From a virus (lineage: Duplodnaviria; Caudoviricetes), in IMG/VR virus record IMGVR_UViG_3300005805_000060, positions 1 through 64,000 of that record: 64,000 nucleotides of DNA; one strand, 5' to 3'. Of the stretch, positions 27,746 to 53,524 are shown in pieces. The notes under the pieces are model-generated. The model made no database searches, was not told where the DNA came from, and was given only the letters and a program-made list of their open reading frames with translations. Both the position numbers and the translations under genes were made by a program. Within the stretch, counting starts at the first letter, position 1; every line of letters starts with the position of its first letter.

Positions 27746-28246
27746 TTACCAGGCCTTGTTGTAATCGATCACTTCGCAGTTTCTCGAAATGTCCTTGACA
27801 AAGTACACACATTGTGGCACCGATTCATCTTCAATGGGCACTGCCAGCATCTGCCCGTTCTTGAGTTTGGGTGAGTACCATGTAACTTCGTGGTACACAT
27901 CTAAGATCTCAATCTCAGGAAAACTGGGCCGAAAGTCTGTGAGCGGGTTGAACTGGAATGCCCGGAATCCGCGATCATTGATTGATGTCAAGGGCAGCAC
28001 TTCAAGGTCTCCAATGTCAGGTTCTCCGATCAAGATTTGCCAGTCCATGGGCATCTTGACAGTGTGTTCGCCAATCCTTAGTACCAGAGCCGGTGCAGTA
28101 AAACTCTCCAGGAAGATCAGGGGTATGTAGTGATAGTCAGGATTGGCGGGATCAGAGTTGTCTAGAATAGCAAATCTTAGATCGTCTATCTCGTCTGGCA
28201 GCGTGTCGAGCTCGTAGGGTTCATTATCCAAGGTCAGTATTTTCAT
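27746..28246 (-). CDS. Conserved hypothetical protein
   Basis: 166 aa with its own promoter. Confidence 0.7.
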   Translation of the reverse strand: MKILTLDNEPYELDTLPDEIDDLRFAILDNSDPANPDYHYIPLIFLESFTAPALVLRIGEHTVKMPMDWQILIGEPDIGDLEVLPLTSINDRGFRAFQFNPLTDFRPSFPEIEILDVYHEVTWYSPKLKNGQMLAVPIEDESVPQCVYFVKDISRNCEVIDYNKAW

Positions 28247-28252
28247 CTTGTT

Positions 28253-28281
28253 ACTATAGAGTAGATAAGGTAAAAAGTCAA
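28253..28281 (-). promoter_or_regulatory. Sigma70-type promoter TTGACT-17-TATAGT
   Basis: -35 at 28276-28281, -10 at 28253-28258; ATG 6 nt downstream. Confidence 0.7.
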
Positions 28282-29126
28282 GTAGTCATCCAGTCTAGCC
28301 GTTCGTGTGTAAACGGATAGTGTGCGTCTTTGTAATAGGCCTTGCGCTTGGTCAAGTGACGTTTGGCAAATTTACAGGTGCTGGTCACATCCCAGATCTG
28401 CACATAATCTTTGTCTTCAGCTTTGCGAATGCCACGACCGATGCTCTGAATAACACGCACAAAGCTCTTGCCAGGCTCCACCAGCACAAGATTAAAAATA
28501 CGGGGAATGTTAATGCCCACTGCTGCAACACCGTAGGTGGCCACAATGATCTTGTCTGTCGCTTCCGCCACTTGGTCATAGTGATCCTGCCTTTCTAGAG
28601 ACTTGGTAGCGCCGGATATGAATACTGCTCGGTCGCCCAGGCGCTCTACCAAGGCCTGTCCCGCAGCCACACGATCTACCAAGACCAGGGTATTGCCGGT
28701 CTCGTTCACGCGCTGTATCAGCTGAGCCATGGTGTCCAGTCTACCAGATTCTTCCAAGAGGTATTTAAGCTCACTTTGATAGTTCGAGAATTCTACTGGA
28801 TCTACCAGCTGTACCACGTTCACGTGACACTGAGCCAAAACTCCCCGATCTTGCAGTTCGGCAGCGGCCAGGCGATGTATCACGGGGCCCAGGCTCACAT
28901 GTATGGCCTGGAACTCAAAATCTTCCTTGGGTATGGTACCAGTGAGCCCCCAGCGAACAGGCACTTGCGACATCACTCCCGTGAGCAGAGTCTTGAGAGC
29001 ATCGGCTTTGGCCATGTGACAATTGGATACTACTGCACCATTGACAACGTAATTGTGATCCTCTGCCACATGCAGATTGAACACCTCAATTGGTTTTTCA
29101 ATCTCGGTTCTTTTTACCAGCTTCAT
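28278..29126 (-). CDS. uvsW: UvsW helicase piece 3: 35-aa C-intein plus C-extein
   Basis: MKLVKRTEI...VFNLHVAEDHNYVVNGAVVSN then CHMAK..., GLTGT, VGINIP and QSIGRGIR SF2 motifs. Confidence 0.93.
   Translation of the reverse strand: MKLVKRTEIEKPIEVFNLHVAEDHNYVVNGAVVSNCHMAKADALKTLLTGVMSQVPVRWGLTGTIPKEDFEFQAIHVSLGPVIHRLAAAELQDRGVLAQCHVNVVQLVDPVEFSNYQSELKYLLEESGRLDTMAQLIQRVNETGNTLVLVDRVAAGQALVERLGDRAVFISGATKSLERQDHYDQVAEATDKIIVATYGVAAVGINIPRIFNLVLVEPGKSFVRVIQSIGRGIRKAEDKDYVQIWDVTSTCKFAKRHLTKRKAYYKDAHYPFTHERLDWMTT
29022..29126 (-). mobile_element. Split intein IntC (UvsW site 2, canonical short C part)
   Basis: Block F/G similar to DnaE-type IntC; terminal Asn35 and +1 Cys. Confidence 0.9.
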
Positions 29127-30015
29127 ATATTTTCCTTATTTTGCGAGCAGTGCTAGCATCAAATCTGGTATAATCACAAGGCTCCGGATGATTACATAAC
29201 CAGGTCTGATCAACCAAATTGAGTTGAAATCCGTTTAGCTGGGACCAGTCCCTCAATGCTTTTATTTTGGCATCAAATTTTGAACCACAGCATAATTCCT
29301 TGGGCTTTATCTCTGCTACCGTTTTGTTTTCATAGTCAACAAAGTCTACAATATAAACCTTGTTGGCTCCTTCAAATTGATATTCAATCCTGAGTTTTTC
29401 ATAACACGCTGTTGGTACGTGATATTGATACAGTGTCTCCCAACTTGATCTATATCTAATTCCATCCAATGTAGATTGCCAGTGTGTATTTCTGTTATTG
29501 GAATTTGGAGTGAATGTTCCCTCAAGTATTCGGGATTGCATGAGCCGTGATCGGTACTTTTTGTCTTTGTCTGACATAGATTTGCCGTACATTCCATTGC
29601 CTGCTCCTGAGTTTTTTCTGGCAATCGCATCTTTCACCGACTGTGGTCGAGGGCCAAGAGATCCAATGGCCTGACCTTGGGTGCCTGCGTTCCATGATCG
29701 GCCGGTGTTGAGATTTTTTCTAATTTTTGAACCATGCTTAATCTGGCACACTCGCCCCCCAGCTGCTGATAGTAATGATTTGATTTCTTTCTCAGTACAA
29801 GTGCCGGCCAATAATGAATCTATGTTAGATACCCATTGATGAGTTCTTGAATTCATAACACGTTTTTTGAACTTAGTAAAATCATTGCCCGATAACCTGT
29901 GTCCGGTAGATAAGACAAGAAACCCAAGACCAAACTCTATTACCCTTGTTACCTGTCCAAATTCTAATAGACGACTGTTCAAACGTTCAATCCATTGCGC
30001 ATAACTGATTTTCAT
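29098..30015 (-). mobile_element. Free-standing homing endonuclease (TnsA-like PD-(D/E)XK with NUMOD3-like motif)
   Basis: NGMYGK, YRSSWE, YIVDFVD...EIKPK; AT-rich; GAGG SD before the ATG at 30015 (ORF open from 30036). Confidence 0.8.
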
Positions 30016-30028
30016 AAATACCTCTGCT

Positions 30029-30325
30029 TTAGTCAAGCGTATTTATGATTTCGTGCTGATCTGTGAGTTCGTCGGCACGGCACCATCCCAGATTAGTAAA
30101 AAATTTGTGGTTTCCGGTTACTTCAACTTGCATACCATTATCAAATTCTAACCGATACATTCTTTCTGTCAGCGACGTGGTCAAGTTACAATGCTGTTTG
30201 ACTATCACATCTTCCTTAAACTTTTTGGTTTTTTCGCAGTAATTGATTACGCGGTTACCGGCCTGCAGATCACGGATTGGTACATACCCGTCAGGAGTCA
30301 GCACCGGAGTATCACCCGCAAAACA
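30029..30325 (-). mobile_element. Split intein IntN (UvsW site 2, 98 aa)
   Basis: CFAGDTPVLTPDG block A, TGNH block B, W.RADEL, then stop. Confidence 0.92.
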
Positions 30326-31009
30326 TTCATCAACTATGACGCAGACCACATCTTTCAGGAATTCCTGGATGGTGCAATCGGCATCTCCATCGCGGCCGGC
30401 CTTGAGCAGCACATTGAGACTCTGCCAGGTACAAATGGTGTGTTGGCATCCCCACTCCTTGCGATCTCCAAAATACACGCCCACATCTAGACCCATGTTC
30501 ACATAGTCTCGTTCGGTCTGAGTGACCAGACTCTTGTTGGGTACAATCACGATGCTTCGCCCATACGGTGTCACACGATCACTCAAGGCCGCAGTCATGA
30601 TGGTGTTGTGGTGGATCAACCCATTGGCATCTACGTACAAGTGAGGGGCATCAATGGCTATATCAAAACAGTCTTGATTATCCATGTGAGATATCTCTGT
30701 TACTGTTATTTTACCATTGAGGTGATCAACTGTTGATCCAACAGATAAATCTCCTGCAAAAATATCCCTGCCGTATTGTTGGAGGATATGTTGTTTTGCG
30801 ACACGTATGGAATAATCGGTGTCAAAAGTCAGATTAACCATTGGTAAATCAAACTTTTTTATAAGATGACTTACCTTTGCTTCCTTGTTTGGTGTTGGGA
30901 CGGAGATTGCTAGCTCGCCAATATCTAATTCAACATTGTCTGACAGATCAGTTGATTTAAATTCTTCAACGTATGCTGCAAGTTTACCAATCGATAATTT
31001 TACTTTCAT
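30029..31009 (-). CDS. uvsW: UvsW helicase piece 2: long C-intein, 93-aa middle extein, N-intein
   Basis: ...DANGLIHHN|TIMTAAL...VIVDE|CFAGDT...TGNHKFF; ATGA-coupled to the upstream endonuclease. Confidence 0.93.
   Translation of the reverse strand: MKVKLSIGKLAAYVEEFKSTDLSDNVELDIGELAISVPTPNKEAKVSHLIKKFDLPMVNLTFDTDYSIRVAKQHILQQYGRDIFAGDLSVGSTVDHLNGKITVTEISHMDNQDCFDIAIDAPHLYVDANGLIHHNTIMTAALSDRVTPYGRSIVIVPNKSLVTQTERDYVNMGLDVGVYFGDRKEWGCQHTICTWQSLNVLLKAGRDGDADCTIQEFLKDVVCVIVDECFAGDTPVLTPDGYVPIRDLQAGNRVINYCEKTKKFKEDVIVKQHCNLTTSLTERMYRLEFDNGMQVEVTGNHKFFTNLGWCRADELTDQHEIINTLD
30605..31009 (-). mobile_element. Split intein IntC (UvsW site 1, atypical long C part, 135 aa)
   Basis: Contains block B-like His (AKQH), block F (CFDIAI) and terminal HN; +1 Thr. 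Confidence 0.88.
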
Positions 31010-32013
31010 TTGATAAAATCCTTGCATTGTTTCACAGTGTTTTCGGGATCCAGAGTATATTCGTGTTCCCAGATCACCAACACTTGATACCCGTTGTCTT
31101 GCAAATCTTTGACTTTTTTGGCATCATGATCCCAGATGTCGGCCACTGTCTTTTTCCTCACCTGGTGTGATCCAGCATAAAATTTTGGGTTTCCGTGCCA
31201 GTAGTCGCCATAGTATTCTATGATCTTTTTACCATATAAAAAGTCAACACGGTGTACTTTTTTCTTTCCTCGAACGGTTTTTTCATTGGGGCCATAATAG
31301 CCAACTCCTAGATTTTCAAATAGTTCAAGGGATCTTTTGCTGCGATTAGCCACCATTCTCTTGTTACCATCTGAATTTAGCCATCGCTCGATTCGTTGAT
31401 TGAATAGGTCTTCACCAGCGGCCCCATATTTTCTTTTATAAAACTCAATCCCATTGGTGGTTTGGATCTCTCTCACTTTGTTCGCGGCCTCCTCCGGTGT
31501 ATGACCTTGCCTAATCCAATACTCGTGAGATCTAGCGGAGAATCCCCGAGAACCTTTCTTTGATGCCGGGGATCTAGACGATCTCTCTCGTTGAACCATC
31601 AAGACTTTTTCTAAAGCCTGAGTCTCAGAAAACCCTTGGTTGGTCCAAAAGTTGATCGTGTTCGGAAACCCTTTGCTCTTTTCTTGATTGGCCAACATCA
31701 TTGCCAACTGAGTCTGGCTGGCAGTAAACATGCACTCTAGTTTACTTGCTTTCATCAGGTTAGTACCATCTTTAGAACATTTACACATGAGTCGAGCCAA
31801 GAAATTTCCGCGCCATATTCCAAGAGACAATTTGGTTCCGCACTTGTAACAGGTGCGGGTGCCTATTTCTAATCCTGATCTTATGAAATGTCGACTGGCA
31901 TAAACTGGTGCATCCACAAAGTCGATTAGATTCCATTTGTTGATGTTGTTTAGAGTGCATAATCGCAACCAACTTTTTTTAGCAAACTTGGTTGTTATTT
32001 CTTGTAACGTCAT
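31006..32013 (-). mobile_element. Free-standing Vsr-like (EDxHD/DUF559) homing endonuclease
   Basis: VDF...IEYYGDYWHGNP...DAKK...GYQVLVIWE; AGGAG SD; AT-rich. Confidence 0.85.
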
Positions 32014-32107
32014 TACCCTGCTCCTGTTGTAATTTATTTATGATAAATTTACCAAAAGAAGAGTTTTCGTCAATCTCTAGACACAACTCAGTATCCCCTG
32101 CTAGGCA
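31979..32107 (-). mobile_element. Split intein IntN (UvsW site 1, atypical, at most 42 aa)
   Basis: CLAGDTELCLEID block A begins inside the Walker A (GK|T). Confidence 0.85.
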
Positions 32108-32551
32108 CTTGCCCGCGCCGGTGGCAATCTCCTGAAGACTCTGTAGATTGGTCAAGAAGTTGTTGATGACCACAACTTGATAGTCGCGCAGCATTATGGG
32201 CTCGCCGGCCTGGGGATGTCCTTGGGGCCATACCCGATCTGCAAAGCTGCCTTCATGCACTGGTTCTAGGGCAATGCGTGAGCTGTAGGTACGCTGATCA
32301 TCAAGATCAATGTCGTAGTCAAATTCCTCTAGCACAGGCAATATTTCTGGCAAGAGATTGGTGTAACTGCTACCGCCCAACTGAAAAAAGCTCACACATC
32401 CATCCCAACGTCCTAGACGCACTGCTGGCAGATAGCGGGCATATGGCACCTGATACTTGAACTTCTTTACCAGAGCTCGACGAGCATCAAGGTCGAGTCC
32501 TTCAATCTTGCAGTTGACTTCGTCACGAATTACTATAGTGGCTTTTTTCAT
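31979..32551 (-). CDS. uvsW: UvsW helicase piece 1: N-extein plus short N-intein
   Basis: WDG.V.FF, LRDYQ Q-motif, ATGAGK then CLAGDT; stop 42 aa later. Confidence 0.93.
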   Translation of the reverse strand: MKKATIVIRDEVNCKIEGLDLDARRALVKKFKYQVPYARYLPAVRLGRWDGCVSFFQLGGSSYTNLLPEILPVLEEFDYDIDLDDQRTYSSRIALEPVHEGSFADRVWPQGHPQAGEPIMLRDYQVVVINNFLTNLQSLQEIATGAGKCLAGDTELCLEIDENSSFGKFIINKLQQEQGNDVTRNNNQVC

Positions 32552-33420
32552 TGTATGGTCACAGTTTTAACCCATTGGTTTGCGGTAATACTTTGTATTA
32601 TACTAGAGTTATCGCTGCAATCCGAAATCAATTCAGCCACTTTGTACTGCATTGGTTGTGCTTGCCAGCACCGGGGACTAAGCACTCCGCAAGATTGAAA
32701 AAAAGCTTGTCGACTATGCCAATACTCCTCTATCTTTTCCTGTTGGTGCTGTAGATATTCAGGTGTATCATTATAGAAACTGATTACAAAATCTGCACTG
32801 TAGTGGGAAAATGGTAGAAACATGTCTTGCCCAGCATACTGGTCTTGGTCCTTGGCCAGTTCCCAAAGTGTTTTACCAATCTCGCAGTAATTGAGATAGA
32901 CTGATCCAAACTGTCGCCCTACTTCTCCCCAACGCTGGCATAGTTCGGGATCTAGAGTTTCGGTCTTGGGCATGCCCCACCAAGTGCATACCATCCGAGG
33001 ACGAGACAAAGCTAGACTTTCACAACGATGCACCAGCACGTTGAGTCGTGCTAGTGCCTGCTGTACTTGGGGAGTTGCAAGATTCCACCACGCAGTATTC
33101 TGACTGTTCAGTTGTCCGTGGTAGGTTTCAAATATCCAATGCAGGTAGTTAAGCAGGTCCTGATCAAACTGATCAAGGACTGGGCGCTCAATTATGTGCT
33201 GATACGAGTTGATTGTGTCAACACAGAGTCTTAGCTCATGTAAAGCAGACTCCCGTTGACTCTCTCGGCTACCAAACCCATAAAACCGCTGAGGGTCATC
33301 CAAGGGCCAGGAGTGCCGCAGACGCATGCGATCAAGCCATAGTTGGGCCACCGGAGTTGACAGTACCCGGAAACGCAATTCTAGATCGCGATCTTTACCT
33401 AGCTCAAGTACCAGATCCAT
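32548..33420 (-). CDS. Hypothetical protein (paralog of 46770..47675)
   Basis: LNVLVHRCE and YCEIGK motifs shared with the paralog; ATGA-coupled to uvsW piece 1. Confidence 0.65.
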   Translation of the reverse strand: MDLVLELGKDRDLELRFRVLSTPVAQLWLDRMRLRHSWPLDDPQRFYGFGSRESQRESALHELRLCVDTINSYQHIIERPVLDQFDQDLLNYLHWIFETYHGQLNSQNTAWWNLATPQVQQALARLNVLVHRCESLALSRPRMVCTWWGMPKTETLDPELCQRWGEVGRQFGSVYLNYCEIGKTLWELAKDQDQYAGQDMFLPFSHYSADFVISFYNDTPEYLQHQQEKIEEYWHSRQAFFQSCGVLSPRCWQAQPMQYKVAELISDCSDNSSIIQSITANQWVKTVTIQ

Positions 33421-33447
33421 CAAGTATATATGCCACTGCAAACGGCC

Positions 33448-50574: not shown

Positions 50575-52856
<2,282 letters not shown>

Positions 52857-52860
52857 ACCG

Positions 52861-52890
52861 TATTTATACAAATGCAAATTCGTCATACAA
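52861..52890 (-). promoter_or_regulatory. Late promoter TATAAATA overlapped by a copy of the intein-less terL insertion site
   Basis: TTG TAT GAC GAA TTT GCA TTT GTA (52890-52867) reads LY-DEFAFV and overlaps TATAAATA (52868-52861). Confidence 0.75.
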
Positions 52891-53002
52891 TTATTTTTAA
52901 AGGATTATATAATCTTTTATATAATTCTTTAAGAGATATATCTTCTTCTATCAAGGTTTTTTTATTCCTGATTTTTACAGTGGTGGTCTCACCATCTAAA
53001 CA
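52883..53002 (-). mobile_element. Atypical split intein IntN (TerL, 39 aa)
   Basis: CLDGETTTVKI...ISLKELYKRL, as in AceL/GOS-TerL-type short IntN. Confidence 0.9.
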
Positions 53003-53524
53003 ATAGAGCAAGGATATACTCATACCCCGGCCTGTGGTCTCTGTTGTGGTCTGGCTCACTATGCGGCTACCGTTATCAAATTCCAGGCTGCCCTTGTTGT
53101 AACTGGTGGCGCCGGCCCGGATATGATCGGGACAAAACTCATAGGCATAGCGTATGCGTTGCATGATTTCTTGGGCACCGGTATACTTGTGCGCGGCGAT
53201 CAAGATGGTGCTGTCAGGCACAAACATGGCATACCAGAGCAGGTAACCTGCAGCTGATGTTGACTTACCACTCTGTCTGGGCATGAGACTGATGCTGTAG
53301 CGATAGCCGTGATAGGTATTGATCAGACGTTTTTGGTATTCATATGGGTGATACAGCATGCGGCCACGTGTGGGATGCTGTATCATGAAAAAATTGTCCA
53401 TGAAGTACATGGGACCTGTCACGGGGTCCGCACACTTTATGAACTCCTCTACCTCTTGATCAGTGAAGTGTTCTCGTCGATGCGGACTTTTGACTAGAGC
53501 TGTTTCTAATTGATTGCGGACCAT
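52883..53524 (-). CDS. terL: Terminase large subunit piece 1: ATPase N-extein plus 39-aa N-intein
   Basis: YQ, PRQSGKS Walker A, GRGMSISLLY|CLDGET... Confidence 0.93.
   Translation of the reverse strand: MVRNQLETALVKSPHRREHFTDQEVEEFIKCADPVTGPMYFMDNFFMIQHPTRGRMLYHPYEYQKRLINTYHGYRYSISLMPRQSGKSTSAAGYLLWYAMFVPDSTILIAAHKYTGAQEIMQRIRYAYEFCPDHIRAGATSYNKGSLEFDNGSRIVSQTTTETTGRGMSISLLYCLDGETTTVKIRNKKTLIEEDISLKELYKRLYNPLKIIV

Follow-up and report, generated by a model that had tools for sequence, protein, structure and literature searches.

A phage UvsW helicase encoded in three pieces that two different split inteins likely join

We analyzed the uvsW locus of a large uncultured lake phage (Duplodnaviria; Caudoviricetes) in a 64,000-nucleotide stretch of DNA, hereafter the window, which is the first 64 kb of the 88,460-base IMG/VR virus record IMGVR_UViG_3300005805_000060. 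On the evidence below, the UvsW helicase of this phage is likely made as three proteins that two different split inteins join into one. The locus holds five minus-strand open reading frames (ORFs) at 31979-32551 (190 amino acids, aa), 31006-32013 (335 aa), 30029-31027 (332 aa), 29098-30036 (312 aa) and 28278-29126 (282 aa). In gene order, they encode the N-terminal part of the helicase (N-extein) with the N-half of intein 1 (IntN1); nuclease gene 1; the C-half of intein 1 (IntC1) with the middle extein and the N-half of intein 2 (IntN2); nuclease gene 2; and the C-half of intein 2 (IntC2) with the C-extein. A search of sequencing runs found DNA of the window in lake-water metagenomes; no RNA run was listed among those that contain it, which counts neither for nor against expression. 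CheckV puts the completeness of the record at 25%, which makes it a fragment of a large, roughly 350-kb phage.

Three pieces of one helicase

A first-pass annotation made from the sequence had proposed this three-ORF anatomy, and the recomputed boundaries match it to the residue (148/42 in the first piece, 141/93/98 in the second and 35/247 in the third; here and below a slash within a sequence or a series of lengths marks a boundary). The break points lie where it had placed them, within Walker A (GK/T) and motif II (DE/CH), and the joints read ATGAGK/TIMTAA and VIVDE/CHMAK. The three exteins add up to the 488 aa claimed for the joined product, with all helicase motifs intact.

When joined, the exteins are 76% identical to the intact 487-aa UvsW of the related viral contig L010, and the alignment is colinear and gapless at both joints. 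Taken singly, the N-extein matches residues 1-150 of the L010 protein at 69% identity, the middle extein residues 148-246 at 79% and the C-extein residues 239-486 at 78%. The family name, that of a T4-type SF2 repair helicase, is justified because the intact L010 protein in turn matches T4 UvsW (PDB 2oca) over its full length (residues 27-476, E 3e-26). Among cultured phages, the nearest relatives of these helicase exteins are UvsW-like helicases from 121Q/PBECO4-type jumbo coliphages. BLAST matches of the 121Q and PM2 helicases that apparently reached into IntC1 were rejected as a low-similarity artefact, and give no sign that those residues are extein.

The same five-gene order, with two split inteins and two nuclease genes, recurs in L011 (SRR7903765) and L012 (SRR29243433), which are independent assemblies of other samples. 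A further IMG/VR contig, L007, has the same three-piece order and both split inteins, minus nuclease gene 2. Across these four three-piece lineages the pieces are 50-83% identical and every ORF is open. Neither intein shows a change at Cys1, at the block B His, at the terminal Asn or at the +1 nucleophile.

This recurrence bears on the danger of a misassembly, raised already in the first-pass annotation, or of a chimera built from different metagenomic uvsW alleles. The record is a metagenomic contig of low depth, about 6-8x. Logan contigs from four lake-water runs of one study are nevertheless 100% identical to it and span each of the four ORF junctions, and neither alternative joints nor loose ends were seen; the bridging unitigs, from several runs, are 100% identical over each junction. 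Since these four runs may include the source sample, the stronger case against misassembly is the same layout in the independent assemblies L007, L011 and L012. Together, the bridging contigs and the recurring layout argue for a real arrangement, and we regard an artefact as hardly credible. The parts of the locus are listed in Table 1.

Table 1 Parts of the fractured uvsW locus, in order of transcription
Feature	Position in window	Strand	Description
UvsW N-extein	32108..32551	-	148 aa; C-end is Walker A, ATGAGK; PHROG 16259 and PHROG 16 'DNA helicase'
IntN1	31982..32107	-	42 aa, CLAGDTEL...; short N-half, atypically split; stop at 31979-31981; tail overlaps start of nuclease gene 1
CATAAATA box	32035..32042	-	T4-late-promoter-like; 22 nt before ATG of nuclease gene 1; within coding sequence of IntN1 tail
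Nuclease gene 1	31006..32013	-	335 aa, free-standing; in a frame unlike that of both flanking ORFs and overlapping both
IntC1	30605..31027	-	141 aa from ATG 31027 or 135 aa from ATG 31009; blocks B (VAKQH), F and G; ends LIHHN, then Thr+1
UvsW middle extein	30326..30604	-	93 aa, TIMTAALS...VCVIVDE; from just past Walker A to motif II; Pfam ResIII
IntN2	30032..30325	-	98 aa, CFAGDT...TGNH...; N-half, canonically split; stop at 30029-30031
CATAAATA box	30040..30047	-	25 nt before ATG of nuclease gene 2 (30015)
Nuclease gene 2	29098..30015	-	305 aa from ATG 30015, the start used by relatives; open from TTG 30036
IntC2	29022..29126	-	35 aa; ends GAVVSN, then Cys+1
UvsW C-extein	28281..29021	-	247 aa, CHMAK...; rest of motif II and helicase C-terminal domain; Pfam Helicase_C 1.6e-8, PHROG 9690 2.1e-52; stop at 28278-28280

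Two inteins split at different points

By its profile matches, intein 2 is an ordinary, canonically split intein. IntN2 scores 42.7 bits against PF14890 (cut-off 35.8) and 45.4 bits against TIGR01445 (cut-off 24.5), and IntC2 scores 23.6 bits against TIGR01443 (cut-off 15.6). IntC2 is conserved in L007, L011 and L012, and the catalytic residues C1 (in CFAGDT), TGNH and VSN/C are retained in the four lineages. The +1 nucleophile is the Cys of the DECH motif itself.

Sequence comparison identifies intein 2 as the same element that splits uvsW once in Salmonella phage S16 (gp114 / gp114.1 / gp115) and Proteus phage PM2 (gp180-182), at the same DE/CH insertion point and with a homologous IntN, IntC and intervening ORF. 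The GenBank records of these two phages label the uvsW pieces merely 'DNA helicase' and 'hypothetical protein'. The S16 and PM2 genes differ from the one in the window in having a single fracture, a contiguous Walker A and a His before the terminal Asn of the intein. The intein halves are 51-54% identical to those of intein 2 (IntN 53%, IntC 51%), while the exteins are only 24-28% identical. Together with the homology of the nuclease genes, this indicates that the cassette moved horizontally between distant uvsW genes into the same DE/CH site.

Intein 1 pairs an IntN1 of 39-42 aa with an IntC1 of 135-141 aa, and block B (VAKQH) lies within IntC1, which places the split near the N-end of the fold. 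In IntC1, H80, C120, D122 and H139-H140-N141-T142 are invariant in 13 sequences, and H80 and HHN/T are among the 46 invariant columns of the IntC1 alignment A3. Cys1 of IntN1 and the block A motif (GK/CL.G.T) are retained in five lineages. The conservation of the IntN1 tail may have another origin, because its DNA holds the ribosome site, the late-promoter-like box and the first codons of nuclease gene 1.

Profile and structure searches both place IntC1 among inteins. A profile of five IntC1 sequences gave nine matches in the PDB, all of them inteins, including VidaL (8.5e-7), Pho RadA (3e-4) and gp41-1 (0.013). The AlphaFold2 model of IntC1 has a predicted local distance difference test (pLDDT) value of 80.8. 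With this model, Foldseek returned inteins at probability 1.0; the listed PDB matches down to at least rank 50 are all inteins or HINT domains.

We then modelled residues 139-190 of the N piece in complex with residues 1-152 of the middle piece. The complex scored 0.86 against 0.00 for the best control, a mark attained by 58 of 80 solved complexes and by 2 of 110 mismatched pairs; since split inteins are common among solved structures, this result shows likeness to a split intein and not binding. Contacts agree to at least 80% across runs, with a partner pLDDT of at least 68. In the model, N-piece residues 145-174 pack against IntC1, and Cys149-Leu150 adjoin IntC1 residues 79-81 (block B), 118-123 (block F) and 139-142 (HHN and Thr+1); the last ~16 residues of IntN1 are left unplaced.

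Several observations weigh against joining by two inteins. The curated intein hidden Markov models (HMMs) of Pfam and NCBIfam gave no match to the N piece, IntN1 or IntC1 even at E 10, so that of the intein assignments in the first-pass annotation, which had named such a search as a check, only that of intein 2 is borne out by both halves above the cut-offs; PF14890, TIGR01445 and TIGR01443 fail on both halves of intein 1. IntN1 alone is without a detectable sequence relative in a PDB sequence search, and the complex model may owe its score to solved split inteins that the predictor had learned. Block B of intein 1 (VAxxH) has Ala where Thr is usual; in the profile alignment VidaL, which is reported to splice fast (PMC13014065), also has Ala at this position. 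Intein 2 has Ser and not the usual His before its terminal Asn in all four lineages, while S16 and PM2 retain His. Finally, the record covers about 25% of the genome, and an intact uvsW may sit in the rest; within the 88-kb record itself, we found no second uvsW copy. Taken together, the profile, fold and complex evidence still indicates that intein 1 is an intein, atypically split, despite the failure of the curated HMMs.

It is conceivable that the three pieces form a working helicase without any covalent joining, the intein halves being kept as docking clasps, in the manner of the split NrdA of phage Aeh1. Such an assembly of a nuclease-fractured phage gene is documented: in Aeh1 nrdA-a / mobE / nrdA-b, a gene split by a free-standing homing endonuclease retains a working enzyme (PMC3045599). 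The lack of a penultimate His in intein 2 would fit this explanation as well. However, the Aeh1 NrdA, which assembles non-covalently, has no intein. In UvsW the breaks fall within the ATP-binding motifs GK/T and DE/CH, and 140-180 extra residues would be left in the active site unless removed. With the breaks so placed in the ATP site, activity should depend on excision of the inteins. The nucleophiles and the terminal Asn of both inteins are also invariant in four to thirteen diverged sequences, which would not be required of a mere clasp. We therefore find assembly by clasps improbable next to joining by splicing.

The fractured uvsW might also be decaying or non-functional, with at least one intein no longer splicing and with its function dispensable or supplied by a helicase in the remaining three quarters of the genome. 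The 25% coverage of the record and the failure of curated HMMs to recognize intein 1 leave room for this reading. Against it, four lineages at 50-80% identity to one another retain every ORF intact, and the exteins are 64-80% conserved across these lineages, with all helicase motifs retained. Nine further protein clusters also retain the site-1 fracture with a full downstream helicase. A decaying gene thus seems to us very unlikely, and splicing by both inteins remains the reading that we prefer.

The Walker A site is also interrupted in other UvsW proteins. In a census of the UvsW N-domain, 41 of the 73 representatives with a visible Walker A have a contiguous GK[TS], 22 have GK/C and 10 have GK followed by Ala or Glu and then QPLYSK. 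Eight members of the GK/C group end 22-41 aa later and are split, and the other 14 continue; the QPLYSK group has a different intein type, with Ala at its start. By these counts the UvsW P-loop is a hot spot for inteins, with at least three intein types.

An IntC1-like sequence occurs in a cultured phage as well. Vibrio phage vB_VmeM-32 (L013, KU160494.1, 66410-66715) has an unannotated stretch with 39% identity to IntC1 (E 5e-14), which lies between the primase gene and a fractured uvsX (a seg-like endonuclease and a HintC piece). By sequence, this is probably another unannotated split-intein fracture.

Intervening nuclease genes and the allele series

The first-pass annotation had placed an endonuclease gene in each gap. 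Two intervening genes are present, with less evidence for a nuclease nature than that label implies, above all for nuclease gene 1. Nuclease gene 2 matches PHROG 15427 'endonuclease' (2.8e-25) and PHROG 22417 (4.7e-36), with a weak Pfam match to TnsA-like N. Copies of this gene in relatives carry NUMOD3, and the ORF that separates the two uvsW halves in S16 and PM2 is 33-34% identical to it (E 1e-33). For nuclease gene 1, the matches are weak: PHROG 13076 'endonuclease' at 1.7e-4 and, below the Pfam thresholds, MTES_1575 (E 0.003) and DUF559 (E 0.04). A PDB sequence search gave no match for nuclease gene 1 and nothing meaningful for nuclease gene 2, and no NCBIfam model matched either nuclease.

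The whole-protein model of nuclease gene 1 is of low confidence (pLDDT 63); its top four Foldseek matches are Vsr (1vsr) and I-Bth0305I (3r3p), at probability 1.0 and E 0.04-0.08. Copies of the gene stand at the same place in L007, L008, L011 and L012, with 53-56% identity. These weak pointers suggest that nuclease gene 1 may belong to the Vsr-like / I-Bth0305I-type (EDxHD) homing endonuclease family. The DNA of inteins and nucleases has a GC content of 37-44% versus 49-53% for the exteins, as expected if the former are invaders.

Relatives with 0, 1 or 2 fractures, for which a search had been proposed at the outset, all exist. L010 has no fracture, with a contiguous gene that includes GKT and DEVH. 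At site 1 alone, L008 has the N-extein with IntN1, nuclease gene 1, and an IntC1 fused to all the remaining helicase, with DEAH; the same form occurs in nine protein clusters of ~473 aa with the full downstream helicase. At site 2 alone, S16 and PM2 are fractured as described above, and the census holds several representatives of ~313-348 aa in which GKT is uninterrupted and the tail has the length expected of a site-2 fracture. Both sites are fractured in the window, L007, L011 and L012. In L007 (5013-6887), the IntN2 and IntC2 ORFs are in-frame and 9 nt apart, with a stop between them, and IntN2 has a 14-aa extra tail; from its sequence, this site looks like a fracture that has lost its endonuclease and is still split.

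The large terminase gene of the same phage is also fractured, at 50575-53524 (minus strand) of the window. Its N piece (52883-53524, minus) ends in SLLY/CLDGET with a 39-aa IntN, and its C piece (50575-51993, minus) starts with an IntC of ~123 aa that ends in ITKN/CDEFAF. The ORF between them (51921-52886, minus) shows weak similarity to nuclease gene 1 (E 0.001) and contains a Vsr-like motif. This TerL layout is that of the published atypically split terminase inteins (Dassa 2009; AceL-TerL, GOS-TerL). As predicted from sequence, the phage would have three split inteins at work simultaneously, the two of UvsW and another in TerL.

The uvsW string is probably co-transcribed, judging from its layout. 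Every ORF has either a Shine-Dalgarno-like site or an ATGA overlap with its predecessor: AGGAG precedes the ATG of nuclease gene 1, GAGG the ATG of nuclease gene 2 at 30015 and AAGGA the ATG of IntC2, and for IntC1 the probable start codon at 31009 shares an ATGA with the stop codon of nuclease gene 1. On the coding strand we found no terminator-like sites within the string, and the matches of a sigma-70 promoter scan were not above chance.

The octamer YATAAATA, which resembles the T4 late promoter, occurs 9 times in the window versus 2.4 expected, a count reached by none of 100 shuffles. Three of the nine copies lie at the 5' ends of the three intervening nuclease genes (the two boxes of Table 1 and 52861-52868, all on the minus strand). 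The CATAAATA box before nuclease gene 2 is retained in L011 and L012 at -32/-33, and a related box before nuclease gene 1 is retained in all five lineages.

Upstream of the uvsW string lies a 297-aa ORF (32548-33441, minus) that shares 4 nt with the uvsW start, and downstream lies a 166-aa ORF (27746-28246, minus); both flanking genes are conserved in this order in L007, L008 and L010. A megablast search of the uvsW region against the phage collection gave no match.

Proposed assembly and its relation to known systems

We propose a model in which the uvsW gene of a jumbo-type lake phage was invaded twice by cassettes of an intein and a homing endonuclease. Three polypeptides would be made: N-extein-IntN1, IntC1-middle extein-IntN2 and IntC2-C-extein. 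IntN1, with a core of ~26 aa, would dock on the 135-141-aa IntC1 and complete its HINT fold; intein 1 would then join GK to T and rebuild Walker A, using Cys1, the block B His, the terminal His-Asn and Thr+1. IntN2 (98 aa) and IntC2 (35 aa) would join DE to CH and rebuild motif II, using Cys1, TGNH, the terminal Asn and Cys+1. The two inteins show no sequence relationship and differ in where the fold is split; they should therefore stay orthogonal, with the correct 488-aa helicase as the sole product. Each cassette would owe its spread to the nuclease gene between its halves, acting as a selfish driver. Both trans-splicing reactions, their orthogonality, and the activity and site specificity of the nucleases are predictions of this model.

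As judged from sequence, both fractures have the layout of the fractured genes described by Dassa, London, Stoddard, Schueler-Furman and Pietrokovski in 2009: adjacent same-strand ORFs with split-intein halves and a free-standing endonuclease gene between them. That study covers eight host types, and UvsW is not among them (PMC2677866). As with uvsW here, its genes are essential phage genes of DNA metabolism, each in two adjacent ORFs on one strand that end and begin with split-intein halves, and a free-standing homing endonuclease gene, often Vsr-like, lies between the ORFs and overlaps them. The weak fold and Pfam pointers of nuclease gene 1 fit the Vsr-like endonucleases found there. The same study reports an endonuclease-less gp41-7 allele, to which site 2 of L007 corresponds, and an atypically split terminase intein with a 122-aa IntC (PMC2677866). 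The published loci have one fracture each, whereas uvsW in the window is broken twice; its two inteins are unrelated to each other, as are its two nucleases, and its middle polypeptide has the form IntC-extein-IntN.

Intein 1 resembles VidaL (PDB 6vgv), AceL-TerL, GOS-TerL and PolB16, which likewise combine a short IntN with a long, block B-containing IntC. VidaL is the best PDB relative of IntC1 by profile and is among its structural neighbours; it is Cys1-dependent like intein 1, at low sequence identity. Intein 1 differs from the TerL and PolB inteins in host protein and insertion site, and its IntN1 of 39-42 aa lies slightly above the natural IntN range of 15-37 aa for atypically split inteins (PMC13014065).

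The predicted assembly of UvsW has its closest counterpart in the laboratory. Tandem trans-splicing, or three-piece ligation, has been engineered with orthogonal split inteins (PMC7210297, PMC7090010, PMC11271493). Those designs, like the assembly predicted for UvsW, use three polypeptides and two orthogonal split inteins; the middle piece starts with an IntC and finishes with an IntN.

The searchable literature (subscription journals lay outside its scope) yielded only engineered cases and no natural gene with two fractures and a middle IntC-extein-IntN subunit, and no publication that pairs split inteins with UvsW. The suggestion of novelty in the first-pass annotation stands to that extent, with one partial precedent: the DnaE-1 locus of Dassa 2009 holds part of an additional intein (PMC2677866). 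The study does not call it a second split, though the locus may be a similar arrangement seen only in part. The parts of the uvsW locus are all of known kinds, namely fractured genes (PMC2677866), atypically split inteins (PMC13014065) and the S16-type uvsW fracture, and imply no new mechanism. We are evenly divided on the larger claim, that this is a natural case of obligate tandem trans-splicing, undescribed as far as we found, in which one enzyme arises from three gene products through two orthogonal split inteins of different topology and which is conserved in several lineages.

If the model is right, nature has already solved the problem of orthogonality and ordering that engineers meet with designed intein pairs, and the two split inteins of UvsW and the one of TerL would form a co-evolved orthogonal set. 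Split inteins are major tools of protein engineering, and three-piece joining needs two non-cross-reacting pairs, which researchers now choose or engineer. A gene whose product requires two trans-splicings at the same time would offer a pair that selection has shaped to function together in the same cell; one member is canonical, and the other has a short IntN close to a peptide in size.

The locus would also show how far selfish cassettes of inteins and endonucleases can fragment an essential phage gene without killing it. The alleles with 0, 1 and 2 fractures, together with the nuclease-less fracture, lay out the steps of fracturing within one gene family.

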